Positions 11,842 to 24,337 of a stretch of 29,302 bases of DNA are shown here, piece after piece; the stretch's first letter is position 1, and each line of letters opens with the position of its first letter. Origin of the DNA: a virus; UHGV virus genome UHGV-0110803; one strand, given 5' to 3'. The notes beneath the pieces were generated by a model, which saw nothing but the letters and a program-made list of their open reading frames with translations, searched no databases and had not been told where the DNA came from. The translations under genes were made by a program, and so were the position numbers.

Positions 11842-12134
11842 TCCTGTTCACTGGCCTCTTTGGCCATCTTCAAATACTGTTCAGGGCAATGCGCCATAAC
11901 GCGCTGAAACAGTTCCAGCGCCAGATTGCGTTGCCCCTCATTAAATGCCATTGCCATAGCATCCATCGGAGAGATAGCGGAAAACACACGGCCTTTCTCC
12001 AGCACCGACCAGACAACGCGACGCCCCTGTTCACTGCTCATGACAAAGCGAATGTCATCAATTTCACGCTGTGCCATGTCACGTTGCTTACGGGCGTTTT
12101 CTTCTTTCAGTTGATCGTCTTCGTAATCTGTCAT
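11838..12134 (-). CDS. Hypothetical head-assembly protein (98 aa)
   Basis: 4-nt overlaps with portal and scaffold genes indicate coupled translation. Confidence 0.45.
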   Translation of the reverse strand: MTDYEDDQLKEENARKQRDMAQREIDDIRFVMSSEQGRRVVWSVLEKGRVFSAISPMDAMAMAFNEGQRNLALELFQRVMAHCPEQYLKMAKEASEQE

Positions 12135-14099: not shown

Positions 14100-14136
14100 T
14101 TGACATTTAATGCGCGAATTATTACCTTTGAGGTAA
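14100..14136 (+). promoter_or_regulatory. Putative promoter region for the tRNA/moron cassette: TTGACA, AATTAT, then palindrome TTACCTTTGAGGTAA (14122-14136)
   Basis: TTGACA at 14100-14105; the decamer AATTATTACC is shared with the pL-like promoter; the -35 to -10 spacing is suboptimal (11 bp). Confidence 0.4.
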
Positions 14137-14458: not shown

Positions 14459-14535
14459 GTGGCATTAGCTCAGTTGGACAGAGCAACCGCCTTCTAAGCG
14501 GTTGGTCGCAGGTTCGAATCCTGCATGCCACGCCA
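14459..14535 (+). tRNA. tRNA-Arg (anticodon UCU), CCA encoded
   Basis: Cloverleaf folded by hand: acceptor GTGGCAT/ATGCCAC, D-stem GCTC/GAGC, anticodon stem ACCGC/GCGGT with loop CTTCTAA, T-arm GCAGG-TTCGAAT-CCTGC, discriminator G, CCA. Confidence 0.85.
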
Positions 14536-14734: not shown

Positions 14735-15154
14735 ATGAAGACAATTGATATGTTGGCTAAGTATCTAAATGAATGGCCATTAAAATATTCTCGTATCGTT
14801 CAGGCTGAAGACTGCGTTTTTTATGGCGTTTTTGCTGGTAATGAAATGCATTACGAAGTAATTCAGAGTGAGGGACTGGCCGGGTTAACTCTTAGCGAAG
14901 ACCATGGTACTAGCGTTACGTTCCATGACTGGATAACAGCACAACGTTCTGAAATGGAAAAAGGCGATATGTTTGATATTTCTCGCGCTGTTTACGCTAA
15001 AGCAAAAAGTGATCATGATTACATGAGCGAACACTTATACAACATGAAGTTACAATGCCTGCATGCGGCGCTTATTCAGAATGGGCACTTCGATAAAACA
15101 AGTGCCATCAATATTGCGGAAGCCATCAACGCTGGATTTAATGCCATTAAGTAA
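14735..15154 (+). CDS. Orphan moron protein, 139 aa, no recognisable domain
   Basis: AAGGTGA RBS; visibly AT-rich relative to flanking genes; opposite strand to the surrounding late operon; own terminator. Confidence 0.6.
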   Translation: MKTIDMLAKYLNEWPLKYSRIVQAEDCVFYGVFAGNEMHYEVIQSEGLAGLTLSEDHGTSVTFHDWITAQRSEMEKGDMFDISRAVYAKAKSDHDYMSEHLYNMKLQCLHAALIQNGHFDKTSAINIAEAINAGFNAIK

Positions 15155-15158
15155 CACC

Positions 15159-15170
15159 GTGACATGTCAC
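15159..15170. repeat. Perfect 12-bp palindrome GTGACATGTCAC, copy A
   Basis: Identical 12-mer recurs at 17610-17621 with similar flanks (AACACC upstream). Confidence 0.8.
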
Positions 15171-15174
15171 AAAC

Positions 15175-15203
15175 AGCCAGCCGATGAGCTGGCTTTGTTT
15201 TAT
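15175..15203 (+). terminator. Intrinsic terminator of the moron cassette (AGCCAGC-CGATGA-GCTGGCT then TTGTTTTAT)
   Basis: 7-bp stem plus T-tract on the plus strand; no U-tract on the minus strand. Confidence 0.6.
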
Positions 15204-15244
15204 CCTCATCAGAGGATATCAACGACATTATCCCCACCAGCGGA

Positions 15245-16720
15245 TTAAGCATATGGATCGTAATCTGTGATGGCCTTGCCTTGCTGGTTCTGCTGCCCGG
15301 GAATTCGCAGACGCTTCGACACAGGGAACGCAAACGTCAGCAGTAGCGCATCGCCTTTACCAGGAGAACGCCCAAGCCGCTCCTTGATATCTTCCTTCGG
15401 TTCGATAACGATTTTACCGTCCACTCGAACTTTGTACTCTGCCGCCGACAGGTCGTCCGCTGTTTCCTGGTCATCAAGCATGCCGCCCAGCCTCAGCCAC
15501 GTCTTGCATGAGTTGAACATCTCCCCGCGCTTATTGAGCATCTGCGGGTCAGTAGACGCGCCACCGAACGGAACAAGTTGCCATGTACGACCCCAGCCGT
15601 CACCGATTGACTTCAGACCAGTTCCGTAACCGAAGTCGATGAACACCGCGTCAGCCTGATACTGGTCTTCAAAGTCAGCGATACGCTTTGCCATAATCAG
15701 ATCGTCAGTGGTCTTGTTGCCGGTCCACAGCACCTTACTGTGCAGCCCCTGCCGCAGGTATATCACCGCATCATCAACGCCTGAGTATGCCGGGTCAACG
15801 CCGATTATCACCGGAGCATGTGCAACCTGCGCAGCGGTGACCACCCGTTTCATTGCCTCGTCAGTAAGTCCGGTAGGGATAAACTGCAATTCAGATGCAT
15901 CCGGGAATATGCCGCGCACACGGATTTTAACGAAGTCGCTGTCTTCCCCGTAGTCATCAACCCATTTCTGCAACTGCTGTTTGTTAGTGCCTTCCACCGT
16001 CCGGCTGTCAATCTGCGCAGTTTTCCAGCGGTGTTTATATTTGCGGAAACATTCGCGGAAACGTCCGGTATTACGCGTCGGGTTTCCGAACGCCACCCAG
16101 ATAATCTCAGTGTCTTCGTCCGTTAGCGCACCCTCGGCAACTTCCCACACCAGATCCGCAATGTTCGACGCTTCATCGAATACCACGATGATGCGTTTGC
16201 GCTCGTTGTGTAGTCCGGCGAATGCCTCAGTGTTGTGCTCAGACCAGGGGATTGCGTCAGCTCGCCACCGCTTGTCGTGCCCAGGATCATTGCTGTACAT
16301 CGCGGTAGCGGTACAGGTAAACCAGTCTTTCGTGATAGCAAGGTTCGACCACTTGATAATTTCCGGCCAAGTCTTCGTTCGTAGCTGGTTGTCGGTGTTG
16401 GCGGTCACCACGACCTTACAATCCTCGCAAGTGGACATGCCCCAGTTGATCAGCATTGAGATGAATGCGGATTTACCAATACCGTGACCAGAAGCGCGTG
16501 CCAGCATAAGCGGCTGATAGCGCGTCTCTGGATTCTGCAGGTGATCACGTATCTCTCGGAACGCATCGGCCTGCCACTGACGTGGACCGGTGGCATGTGC
16601 CAGTTCAGTCCCCTCTTCCCCCCACGGGAACGCATAGAGGGCATAACCAAGCGGATCGTGAGTGAACCCTGCAATATCCTCGATCAACTGCTCTTCAGGA
16701 GATAACGCTGTATCTGTCAC
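15245..16720 (-). CDS. terL: Terminase large subunit (491 aa)
   Basis: Walker A-like SGHGIGKS, ATPase then nuclease-domain layout, 4-nt overlap with the small-subunit gene. Confidence 0.85.
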   Translation of the reverse strand: MTDTALSPEEQLIEDIAGFTHDPLGYALYAFPWGEEGTELAHATGPRQWQADAFREIRDHLQNPETRYQPLMLARASGHGIGKSAFISMLINWGMSTCEDCKVVVTANTDNQLRTKTWPEIIKWSNLAITKDWFTCTATAMYSNDPGHDKRWRADAIPWSEHNTEAFAGLHNERKRIIVVFDEASNIADLVWEVAEGALTDEDTEIIWVAFGNPTRNTGRFRECFRKYKHRWKTAQIDSRTVEGTNKQQLQKWVDDYGEDSDFVKIRVRGIFPDASELQFIPTGLTDEAMKRVVTAAQVAHAPVIIGVDPAYSGVDDAVIYLRQGLHSKVLWTGNKTTDDLIMAKRIADFEDQYQADAVFIDFGYGTGLKSIGDGWGRTWQLVPFGGASTDPQMLNKRGEMFNSCKTWLRLGGMLDDQETADDLSAAEYKVRVDGKIVIEPKEDIKERLGRSPGKGDALLLTFAFPVSKRLRIPGQQNQQGKAITDYDPYA

Positions 16721-17313
16721 TGATTACCATCCTGACGTTCTTTGAGTCGCTTCCTGGCTGCTGCTATGCGATCAGCAATTGTCACATTCACATTAACATC
16801 CAGACGTTCTTTGAACGCGTTGACATCAACATGCTTACCAATCAGCTCAAGGTTCTTCACCTTGTCAGGCCATTTAATTTTTTTGAGGATTGTCTCTATC
16901 GAATCCTCGTTCATGTTCATGATGGTCGATGACAGATCAAAGCCACTAAGCGTAGTGCGCCAGATTTTCGGCCACTCACGGATTGGTTTAAGGCTCCCAT
17001 CGTCGTTGAGGATGTCGATCACGTCCATCTGGTCGATCTCCACCAGGCGCATGAGAACGTAATCAGCACTGACGCGCATTCGTTTGTTGCGCTCCTCCAT
17101 CAACTCGGCAATCCGTTTTTGAATGCGTTCATCGCGCATCATGACACTGGCTTTAACTGCCGCTGTATTTGGGGAGAATCCTGCGTTAATCGCTGCCTGA
17201 GTCTGGTTTTCAGGCGTTTTGATGTATGACTGGCAATAAGCCTCCTGCATTGCTGTTAGTGGCTTAAATTGCGTTGATTTGCGTTTATAGGTTTTAGGTT
17301 CAGCAGGCATCAT
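16717..17313 (-). CDS. terS: Terminase small subunit (about 198 aa from tandem ATG ATG; track ORF starts at an upstream TTG)
   Basis: Motif LTAMQEAYCQSYIK ... QTQAAINAGFS typical of small terminase HTH region; AAGGTGG RBS before the ATG pair. Confidence 0.8.
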   Translation of the reverse strand: MMPAEPKTYKRKSTQFKPLTAMQEAYCQSYIKTPENQTQAAINAGFSPNTAAVKASVMMRDERIQKRIAELMEERNKRMRVSADYVLMRLVEIDQMDVIDILNDDGSLKPIREWPKIWRTTLSGFDLSSTIMNMNEDSIETILKKIKWPDKVKNLELIGKHVDVNAFKERLDVNVNVTIADRIAAARKRLKERQDGNQ

Positions 17314-17330
17314 AACCACCTTGGTAATAG

Positions 17331-17353
17331 TTACCGTTGTGGTAATAGTACCA
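17331..17353 (-). promoter_or_regulatory. Palindrome TTACCGTTGTGGTAA fused to an extended -10 (TGG TACTAT on the minus strand) upstream of terS
   Basis: Perfect half-sites; the -10 hexamer shares its last base with the palindrome, the same geometry as three other promoters in the window. Confidence 0.5.
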
Positions 17354-17354
17354 T

Positions 17355-17382
17355 GCAAAATAAAGCCGCCATAGTTGGCGGC
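17355..17382 (-). terminator. Intrinsic terminator after the 70-aa gene (GCCGCC-AACTAT-GGCGGC then TTTATTTTG on the minus strand)
   Basis: 6-bp GC stem plus U-tract, located 5 nt after the stop codon. Confidence 0.55.
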
Positions 17383-17387
17383 AGTAT

Positions 17388-17600
17388 TCAAAGTCCATCA
17401 AATTCATCGTAAAAACTCTCGTCAAGATACCCTTCCCATTTACCGCGAATGAAAATTACATCCTCGCCGCAAGGGTGCTGACTGTCGATAACTATATCCC
17501 TCCTGGCGCAACCATACTTATGCATGAGAAATTTAACCTCTTTCGGAAAATTTGCTGAGTTATCTCTCATATCTTCAAGGTCGTAGCGTATTTTTGGCAT
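17388..17600 (-). CDS. Hypothetical small protein (70 aa from ATG)
   Basis: GAAGGTG RBS; the GTGACATGTCAC palindrome lies immediately upstream. Confidence 0.4.
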   Translation of the reverse strand: MPKIRYDLEDMRDNSANFPKEVKFLMHKYGCARRDIVIDSQHPCGEDVIFIRGKWEGYLDESFYDEFDGL

Positions 17601-17609
17601 AACACCTTC

Positions 17610-17621
17610 GTGACATGTCAC
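17610..17621. repeat. Perfect 12-bp palindrome GTGACATGTCAC, copy B
   Basis: Sits exactly at the junction between the 113-aa gene stop and the RBS of the 70-aa gene. Confidence 0.8.
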
Positions 17622-17959
17622 ACTATTAATTTCGTTTCATGCCAGCCTTTAGTCACCCAGCATTGCGAGTCACCATTACACGGGCATGAATTCACAGGAA
17701 CTCTCTCGCCGCACTTACCGCAACGTTTTCTGCTGATCGATTTTATACGCCCGCGCACGCGTGCATCATCCTGGCGGATCAGTAACGCTATATACTCACC
17801 AAATTCGTAAGGCGCACGCCCGGGGCGACGTGTGGCACAGTTACGCTCCAGCATTTCAATTTCCTGAGCATCAAGCACAATCTCCAGCTTACGCACACCA
17901 GATGCAGCTTGTCTGGCTCTCTGAGCGGCTTTGCGCTCTGCTGCTGATTTAGCCATCAA
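17618..17959 (-). CDS. Hypothetical protein with basic N-terminus and Cys-rich C-terminus (113 aa)
   Basis: C-terminal CGKCG ... CPCNG ... C cluster suggests a zinc-ribbon; no family assigned. Confidence 0.45.
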   Translation of the reverse strand: MMAKSAAERKAAQRARQAASGVRKLEIVLDAQEIEMLERNCATRRPGRAPYEFGEYIALLIRQDDARVRGRIKSISRKRCGKCGERVPVNSCPCNGDSQCWVTKGWHETKLIV

Positions 17960-18796: not shown

Positions 18797-19186
18797 TCAC
18801 TCTCCTTTTCCCTGAAGCATAGCGGCACGGCAGGCGTTCCAGCCTCTCACCTCTGCAATAGCAGCAACAGCATCAACCGCGTACATGCTAAGAGGATTAG
18901 GCATTGGTTTTTCTTCCGGTACTACTGGAACGGGTGGAGCGGCGTAGACCTCAATAATTCCATTATCAATAGGCCACTCCCCATCCTTGATGTAGTCACT
19001 TGTGCCGTCAACTTGCTGTTCTGCAATGTGAAATGCACCTATTGGTTTTGCTTCCAGCGATACCAGTGCAATACGAAACACATTGGCAAGCAGGCTGTTT
19101 GAAGATTGGTTATCGTGCGCCGGGTCGCTCAGGAAACCAGTGATGAATGATTTAATTTCCGCGTTTTCTCTGGTAATAGTGGTCAT
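18797..19186 (-). CDS. Hypothetical protein (129 aa), N-terminus MTTIT
   Basis: Coupled to neighbouring genes; shares the first five residues and start-region DNA with the next gene. Confidence 0.4.
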   Translation of the reverse strand: MTTITRENAEIKSFITGFLSDPAHDNQSSNSLLANVFRIALVSLEAKPIGAFHIAEQQVDGTSDYIKDGEWPIDNGIIEVYAAPPVPVVPEEKPMPNPLSMYAVDAVAAIAEVRGWNACRAAMLQGKGE

Positions 19187-19548
19187 GCCGTAGCCCCTTC
19201 TTGATATTTTTCAAACCAGAACACAATCGGGTCAGATTTCATTTCAACCAATCCCATACGAACCAGCGCTTTGCCTTTCCCGGACGCAAGGAATTCACGA
19301 CGACCATCACTGATAATTCGCCGATAATCTTCCAGGCTGCTGCAATGCTTGTGCAGATTGCATGGGTGGCATGCCGGAACCATGTTGGATATATCGTCAC
19401 GTTCCTGGTGAAGCATATTTCCAGCAAAACGAATGACCGGTTTTACATGGTCTGCATGCCACTTTTCGCCAAGTTCGCAGCCGCAATAAGCACAGCGACC
19501 GCCGAACTTCATGCGCAGCTCTGCACGTTGTTTTTTCGTCAGTGCCAT
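19183..19548 (-). CDS. HNH endonuclease (121 aa)
   Basis: CAYCG ... HADHVKP ... ACHPCN motif. Confidence 0.8.
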   Translation of the reverse strand: MALTKKQRAELRMKFGGRCAYCGCELGEKWHADHVKPVIRFAGNMLHQERDDISNMVPACHPCNLHKHCSSLEDYRRIISDGRREFLASGKGKALVRMGLVEMKSDPIVFWFEKYQEGATA

Positions 19549-21155: not shown

Positions 21156-21232
21156 TTACCTCTTAGGTAATTAAAAACCACATAAGACACGAAATCAATA
21201 GAGTTTAGAATATTTTGTTACCTGATAGGTAA
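21156..21232 (-). promoter_or_regulatory. Minus-strand promoter with two perfect palindromes: TTACCTGATAGGTAA (21218-21232), -35 TTGATT, 17-bp spacer, -10 TTTAAT fused to TTACCTCTTAGGTAA (21156-21170)
   Basis: Same geometry as the pL-like promoter: site, 19 bp, -35, 17 bp, -10 sharing one base with the second site; 62 bp centre to centre. Confidence 0.55.
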
Positions 21233-23500: not shown

Positions 23501-23563
23501 TCACCCATAAGGTAACAAAAATCAAGGATAGTTACCCATGAGGTGCATTTACCTGTTGGGTAA
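23501..23563. promoter_or_regulatory. Operator cluster of three TTACC-N5-GGTAA-type palindromes between the divergent regulator genes
   Basis: TCACCCATAAGGTAA (23501-23515), TTACCCATGAGGTGC (23532-23546), TTACCTGTTGGGTAA (23549-23563). Confidence 0.6.
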
Positions 23564-24260: not shown

Positions 24261-24337
24261 TTACCTAATAGGTAATTTTCTTAACTCATATCTATTGACA
24301 TCAAACCAAATACGCATAATTATTACCTCAACGGTAA
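24261..24337 (+). promoter_or_regulatory. pL-like promoter: palindrome TTACCTAATAGGTAA (24261-24275), -35 TTGACA (24295-24300), 17-bp spacer, -10 AATTAT fused to TTACCTCAACGGTAA (24323-24337)
   Basis: Consensus -35; two perfect palindromes 62 bp apart centre to centre. Confidence 0.6.

Follow-up and report, generated by a model that had tools for sequence, protein, structure and literature searches.

What is the function of a short perfect palindrome that a prophage carries in two identical copies, one on each side of its terminase genes? The question is raised by UHGV virus genome UHGV-0110803, a stretch of 29,302 nucleotides (nt; the window in what follows) that is an epsilon15/phiV10-like (Uetakevirus) prophage. 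A scan of the window finds exact copies of the 12-bp palindrome GTGACATGTCAC at 15159-15170 (site B) and 17610-17621 (site A). The last valine codon and the TGA stop (window bases 17618-17620) of a small regulator gene lie inside site A, and the reading that we favor is that the palindromes are probably operators for a dimer of this protein, the phage's own 112/113-amino acid (aa) member of PHROG 536, a case that is built on sequence comparison. The sites and the gene are the following:

17609..17622 (12-mer 17610-17621), no strand: site A, GTGACATGTCAC with Y/R flanks, located by exact scan
15158..15171 (12-mer 15159-15170), no strand: site B, GTGACATGTCAC with Y/R flanks, located by exact scan
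17618..17959, minus strand: regulator gene, PHROG 536, 113 aa from TTG or 112 aa from ATG at 17956

A preliminary description of this DNA had listed the two palindromes and remarked that they bracket the terminase genes. Both observations are borne out. The copies are exact and far above chance: dinucleotide-preserving shuffles give an expectation of 0.03 copies of GTGACATGTCAC with one mismatch allowed, and of 0.02 copies of the looser pattern GTGACNNGTCAC, against the 2 copies of the latter in the window. The 70-aa gene, terS and terL all lie between sites A and B, which are 2451 bp apart. The related flanks that had also been ascribed to the two sites fare less well. A shared GGTGTTA (allowing for a 3-nt indel) does exist, but it is conserved neither across relatives nor in the sequence logo described below; next to site A these letters are the ribosome-binding site and start of the 70-aa gene, and relatives without this gene do not have them. 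The proposal that the sites serve a dimeric factor is supported by the analysis that follows, in which co-occurrence also provides the factor with a name: the candidate is the regulator whose stop codon lies inside site A.

The palindrome and the regulator gene as a linked pair

Homologs of the regulator are found with tblastn in phages that have quite different virion and packaging genes, and the motif is present in every carrier examined. Pectobacterium myovirus ZF40, with a 67% identical regulator, has three exact copies of the motif (0.05 are expected), one of them 2 nt past the regulator stop and two inside early genes. Where copies lie inside coding genes, the 12-mer is exact although neighboring codons differ. 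N15, with a 35% identical regulator, has three copies of the form GTGAC-TG/CA-GTCAC: one falls on the TGA stop of gene 46 and shares the register of epsilon15, another lies within repA, and the last is found where the repA operon ends. In a P2-like Yersinia phage, a long intergenic region contains a pair of sites spaced 33 bp apart. The Vibrio siphophage K303, with a regulator that is 31% identical, has three copies; in an unbiased count over the K303 genome, GTGAC with a 2-nt spacer ties for the top 5-mer inverted repeat. Phage lambda, which is without the regulator gene, has zero copies of the motif.

The association holds in both test directions across unrelated phage types. In the forward direction, a protein profile was used to fetch 80 diverse viral loci (1.37 Mb in all), in which every 5-mer inverted repeat with a spacer of 0-4 nt was counted. 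GTGAC-N2-GTCAC ranks first, with 95 matches in 76 of the 80 loci; the runner-up has 23. The commonest register in these loci is that in which the TGA stop of the regulator gene forms bases 2-4 of the site, and this register is maintained in subfamilies with AT, GC or AG at the center of the palindrome, as it is in epsilon15, Tyrion and N15. For the converse test, presence of TGTGACATGTCACA was the sole ground for choosing 120 viral stretches (2-15 kb); the regulator is encoded in the same stretch in 32 of them, and several more are from contigs known to carry it. Thus, Y-GTGAC-N2-GTCAC-R and the regulator gene constitute a linked pair across very different temperate phages: one site is nearly always on or beside the regulator stop codon, and one to three more are located elsewhere in the genome.

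The logo of 66 sites with unique contexts has the consensus Y-GTGAC-(A>g)(T>c)-GTCAC-R, and the only information beyond the 12-mer is at +/-1. Written as a duplex, the 14-bp site is YGTGACATGTCACR; further duplex forms are CGTGACATGTCACA and TGTGACATGTCACG, all being putative targets of the regulator.

That the regulator binds the palindrome is something that we infer from the co-occurrence of site and gene, and a site for some other factor (a host protein, a phage DNA methyltransferase or an HNH endonuclease) that merely travels with the gene neighborhood would also co-occur with it. Genes for methyltransferases or HNH enzymes are indeed present in many carriers (in the window, an HNH gene occupies 19183-19548), and CATG is part of the motif. 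However, the regulator is the sole gene common to all carriers examined, and the record of epsilon15 has no annotated HNH gene, while that of the P2-like Yersinia phage has no annotated methyltransferase. Even with regulators that share no more than 31-40% identity, lineages have the motif physically locked to the regulator stop codon. The central CATG gives way to CTGG, CGCG or CACG in some lineages, while GTGAC/GTCAC stays fixed. We consider a different binding factor improbable, although it is the strongest competitor of the regulator.

Three sites in the Uetakeviruses

Whole-genome scans find the palindrome in exact form three times, no more, in each of epsilon15, PAS61 and Tyrion, at homologous places; SPNIS2 and BUCT554 have the same three sites, with one variant copy in each. 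The coding DNA of these five phages is only ~80% identical, and their morons (a moron is an accessory gene inserted among core phage genes) and neighboring genes differ. Looking for the motif at boundaries in related phages had been proposed as a check on its significance, and its retention at three homologous places in five complete relatives is the outcome. The first two of these places are represented in the window by sites A and B, whose surroundings are made up of:

17388..17600, minus strand: 70-aa gene, PHROG 1541, between site A and the terminator
17365..17382, minus strand: intrinsic terminator, hairpin GCCGCCAACTATGGCGGC and then a T run, separating the early operon from terS
16717..17319, minus strand: terS, terminase small subunit, Pfam Terminase_2
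15245..16720, minus strand: terL, terminase large subunit
15175..15194, plus strand: terminator hairpin and T run of the plus-strand moron, adjoining site B
14735..15154, plus strand: convergent moron gene, 139 aa, PHROG 4846, function unknown

The regulator gene is the last gene of the early-right operon, and site A is at the stop codon of this last early gene (gp49 in epsilon15) in the Uetakeviruses generally. In the window, the palindrome directly adjoins GAAGG, the Shine-Dalgarno sequence ahead of the ATG (17600-17598) of the 70-aa gene. The homolog of the hairpin at 17365-17382 carries a terminator annotation in the epsilon15 record. Site B is located downstream of terL, abutting the 3' end of the convergent moron: ~75 nt beyond the terL stop (15245), 4 nt after the TAA of the moron, and 4 nt before the hairpin at 15175-15194, in which compensatory changes keep the pairing in relatives. 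Alignment with PAS61, epsilon15, Tyrion and locus L161 shows the palindrome at site B as an invariant island between diverged flanks. The third place, site C, lies ~2 kb outside the window (in the Uetakeviruses this third copy is 17 kb away), directly after the last gene of the large structural operon, with a terminator hairpin 1-3 nt further on. Sites B and C are both located between convergent 3' ends and have no gene downstream.

A Uetakevirus without the regulator, which would serve as a natural knock-out, was sought; SPNIS2 and BUCT554 were the candidates, and both carry the gene as well as the sites.

Sites, promoters and RNA

The distribution of the sites across phages provides further orientation. 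Slightly more than half of them (51%) are intergenic, compared with 11% of bases, and sites are enriched at incoming stop codons; there is no enrichment at gene starts or ribosome-binding sites.

Three other roles for the palindrome were considered and rejected. That it is a component or an obligatory neighbor of a terminator is true of Uetakevirus sites B and C, but there is no excess of such adjacency across phages. That it is a promoter, with GTGACA as the -35 element, finds a plausible -10 element, 17 nt downstream, only in epsilon15 and Tyrion; this -35/-10 candidate is weak, as judged by eye, there is no -10 box after GTGACA in the window, PAS61 or locus L166, and a promoter scan of the window yields no promoter-like match over either site. 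That it is a stop-codon read-through signal leaves sites B and C unexplained, and the extension past the stop is, on inspection by eye, not conserved between the window and epsilon15.

A function in the transcript rather than in DNA deserves separate consideration. The palindrome could specify an RNA hairpin, acting in antitermination like nut/boxB, in processing by RNase, or as a translational operator comparable to the target of Mu Com in mom. Copies lie 1-20 nt upstream of Shine-Dalgarno sequences at site A, at N15 gene 47, and at Vibrio terS and gene 0032, and the regulator has a Cys4 motif, as has Mu Com. However, the hairpin would have only 4-5 bp and a folding energy of -2.9 kcal/mol, no better than that of shuffled sequences (z = 0.25), and no Rfam family matches it. 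The sequence is invariant and free of compensatory changes, in distinction to the neighboring terminator hairpin, which covaries. Sites B and C, between convergent 3' ends, have no downstream gene, and sites, as stated, are not enriched near gene starts. An RNA element is accordingly quite unlikely, somewhat more so than a site for another DNA-binding factor.

Exchange of DNA next to site B

The variability of the DNA next to the palindrome is best seen in a set of close relatives made up of 80 E. coli prophage loci (L013-L092). Site A is exact in 77 of the 78 loci that can be assessed. Site B, among 73 relatives, is exact in 51, has one mismatch in 8 and is absent from 14. Where site B is missing, replacement DNA takes over from the terL stop codon onward, so that palindrome and hairpin have gone together. 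The segment just past this stop codon has the character of a hot spot for cassette replacement: unrelated DNA follows right from the stop in 14 of the 73 loci.

These observations bear on the proposal, also made in the preliminary description, that the palindromes are recombination scars at the edges of an exchangeable packaging module; more broadly, they would be boundary joints at which the packaging cassette or morons are exchanged. Variable DNA does adjoin the palindrome: at site A it is the 70-aa gene, at site B the morons differ between phages, and Tyrion has an additional gene. The breakpoint, however, is at the terL stop rather than at the palindrome, which is carried away with the swapped segment. 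The 70-aa gene is missing from epsilon15 and Tyrion, and PAS61 and phiV10 retain an 8-codon remnant of it (MHDEFDGF*), so that relatives differ here by an internal deletion and not through insertion at the palindrome. Some copies in ZF40 and N15 are embedded in coding genes, none of the tested genomes gives indication of a recombinase acting on the palindrome, and 12 bp are too short for homologous exchange. A scar is very unlikely.

The least credible reading, likewise raised in the preliminary description, is a packaging signal (pac- or cos-like, or an accessory terminase site) framing the terminase genes. It takes its appeal from the flanking of terS-terL in the window and from a K303 copy ~20 nt upstream of terS, but founders on the occurrence of the motif with unrelated terminases and away from packaging genes (N15, the P2-like phage, ZF40), on the lambda-like cos of N15 lying at the ends of the record, far from the motif, on the third Uetakevirus copy at the end of the structural operon, and on the absence of site B, with retention of the same terminase, in 14 of 73 close relatives.

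The regulator as a boundary factor: a proposal and its weak points

We return to the palindromes as operators of the PHROG 536 regulator. In the Uetakeviruses the three rightward transcription units each have one of the sites at the 3' end, the early-right unit A, the terminase unit B and the structural unit C, with an intrinsic terminator beside every one of them. The regulator would be made from the early operon and would bind to these unit-end sites, where it could present a roadblock or boundary to RNA polymerase. At site A, polymerase might then stall before completing the regulator open reading frame, which would amount to negative autoregulation of a gene that has no promoter of its own; the same binding would also reduce the transcription that runs on from the early operon into the terminase genes. 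Binding at site B would strengthen the separation of terL from the convergent moron.

The protein itself, labeled a transcriptional regulator in PHROGs and RefSeq, is small and basic; its N-terminus is basic, and its C-terminal part contains four invariant cysteines (Cys4). Secondary-structure prediction gives a basic helix and then two more helices; the segment that precedes these helices, which the model shows as coil, is where the strand of a ribbon-helix-helix protein would sit. AlphaFold gives a pLDDT of 47 with the single sequence and of 62 with a 33-sequence alignment, values too low for a fold to be assigned; in the latter model the helices are placed as a strand-helix-helix layout would have them. 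Neither the sequence nor a profile retrieves anything from the PDB.

Several results weigh against the proposal as a whole. The regulator has no match in Pfam, the Q families included. Its sole NCBIfam match is weak (E = 0.05), to YbfE, which we take to be CopG-like; hhalign comparisons with CopG and Mnt are not significant, and Foldseek comparison of the model with the PDB yields noise only. The DNA-binding fold of this protein is accordingly putative, and a site with fixed outer half-sites and a variable center is not what would be expected of a single ribbon-helix-helix ribbon placed on the dyad. Intergenic sites across phages are no closer to terminators (8 of 33) than are random intergenic positions (121 of 500). 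Site B is dispensable, since 22 of 73 close relatives have either lost it or carry it in mutated form. ZF40, N15 and the P2-like phages have late regulators of their own (Q, Ogr), and so the protein is no universal late switch. Finally, the role as roadblock or boundary is one that we infer, and the sign of the effect might even be the opposite, that is, local antitermination that lets transcription read through.

A more ambitious version of the proposal would have PHROG 536 and YGTGAC-N2-GTCACR represent a previously undescribed mode of operon-end control, in which binding at the site on the regulator's own stop codon truncates the regulator message, and so provides autoregulation from the 3' end as well as a read-through gate, the additional sites mark unit ends, and the pair supplies the missing early-to-late switch of the Uetakeviruses, which have no Q homolog. 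We regard this as speculative and rather unlikely, though less so than any of the rival explanations. We know of no established mechanism by which late genes are switched on in epsilon15/phiV10-like phages, some of which serve as O157 typing and reporter phages.

Variant copies and neighboring features

Two variants of the palindrome, and the tandem arrangement in which one of them occurs, merit description:

12071..12082: one-mismatch copy GTGCCATGTCAC (reverse complement GTGACATGGCAC), inside the gp5-like coding gene of the window
L011 11675-11719, and also in L115, L126, L132 and L139: arrays of P2-like phages, in the long intergenic region
L006 26618-26629, L295 26573 and L296 20036: two-mismatch variant GTGACATGGCAT

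The variant at 12071-12082 is conserved in E. coli Uetakeviruses, and GTGACATGGCAC stands in tandem with an exact site in P2-like Yersinia-type phages, so that the copy in the window could be a weak extra site, or else a mere coding coincidence. The P2-like arrays consist of GTGACATGGCAC, 21 nt, GTGACATGTCAC, and then a TGTGAC half-site ~25 nt downstream; with their two or three sites or half-sites they look like a cooperative operator cluster. epsilon15, SPNIS2 and BUCT554 all keep the variant GTGACATGGCAT where their Rz/Rz1 lysis genes end; the place is a fourth operon end, but coding conservation may be all that this reflects.

A second repeated motif of the window, TTACC-N5-GGTAA, occurs in seven copies where none is expected, and is annotated as the repressor operator in the epsilon15 record:

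14122-14136: TTACC-N5-GGTAA, upstream of the gp3-like gene
17331..17345, no strand: TTACC-N5-GGTAA, between the terminator and the start of terS, just upstream of the latter
21156-21170, 21218-21232, 23549-23563, 24261-24275 and 24323-24337: TTACC-N5-GGTAA, the remaining copies

Two late units accordingly have a repressor-type operator at the 5' end, with the GTGAC palindromes at unit 3' ends. The location of TTACC-N5-GGTAA ahead of terS and of the gp3-like gene suggests direct control of the late units by the repressor.

Two further genes complete the neighborhood:

14459-14535, plus strand: tRNA-Arg, anticodon TCT, between the moron and the gp3-like gene
19183-19548, minus strand: HNH endonuclease gene, Pfam HNH, PHROG 2118, in the early region

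The HNH endonuclease gene lies ~1.6 kb upstream of the terminase genes. The product of the 70-aa gene is ~50% identical to that of a small open reading frame located beside uvsY in T4-like phages.

Comparison with known systems

The arrangement at site A invites comparison with lambda Q at pR'. Like Q, the PHROG 536 regulator is encoded last in the early-right operon, immediately upstream of the late genes, with a DNA site directly after its gene and a terminator between this site and the first late gene (terS). Unlike Q, it has no Q-family relation, there is no σ70-like promoter around the site in the window, and there are extra sites at operon 3' ends, in place of a single late promoter. ZF40 and N15 carry a Q-like gene and the PHROG 536 regulator together.

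The ribbon-helix-helix repressors (Arc and Mnt of P22, CopG, MetJ) are likewise small proteins that bind short palindromes; the regulator shares with them a predicted strand-helix-helix core, and the tandem sites of the P2-like phages are spaced by about three helical turns. The differences are that the similarity is not statistically supported, that the regulator has an additional C-terminal Cys4 module, that its putative site has conserved outer half-sites and a variable center, and that the hallmark location of this site is the 3' end of the regulator's own gene rather than a promoter.

Ogr of P2 (and B of 186) provides another point of reference. Ogr is a Cys4 zinc-finger activator of late transcription with dyad-symmetric sites, TGT-N12-ACA, at about -55 of late promoters. 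The PHROG 536 regulator is also a small Cys4 phage protein with a putative site of dyad symmetry, but its sites are at gene ends and have no association with promoters. The P2-like carrier has, in addition, an annotated transcriptional regulator, gp53 (35653-35868), which, from its expected position, is presumably Ogr.

For the proposed mode of action the closest parallel is the LacI-type roadblock, with a dimer that stays firmly on its palindrome, within a transcription unit or where the unit ends, and halts RNA polymerase; the likeness is an analogy of mechanism, and the effect could be the reverse, i.e. read-through.

A phage regulator with a palindromic operator is a well-known kind of system. 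Neither the PHROG 536 family, nor the motif, nor an operator at the regulator's own stop codon is described in the searchable literature, the scope of which does not extend to the epsilon15 genome paper, and the palindrome is not among the many sites annotated in the epsilon15 GenBank record. A widespread family, distributed over Uetakeviruses, N15-like telomere phages, P2-like, ZF40-like and Vibrio phages, and until now provided with a generic label and no Pfam family, thereby gains a testable function and a defined putative DNA target, together with a simple rule for finding the sites: check the regulator gene's own stop codon. If an operator at the 3' end does serve as roadblock or read-through gate, it would constitute an unusual form of regulation for a gene that ends a long operon.

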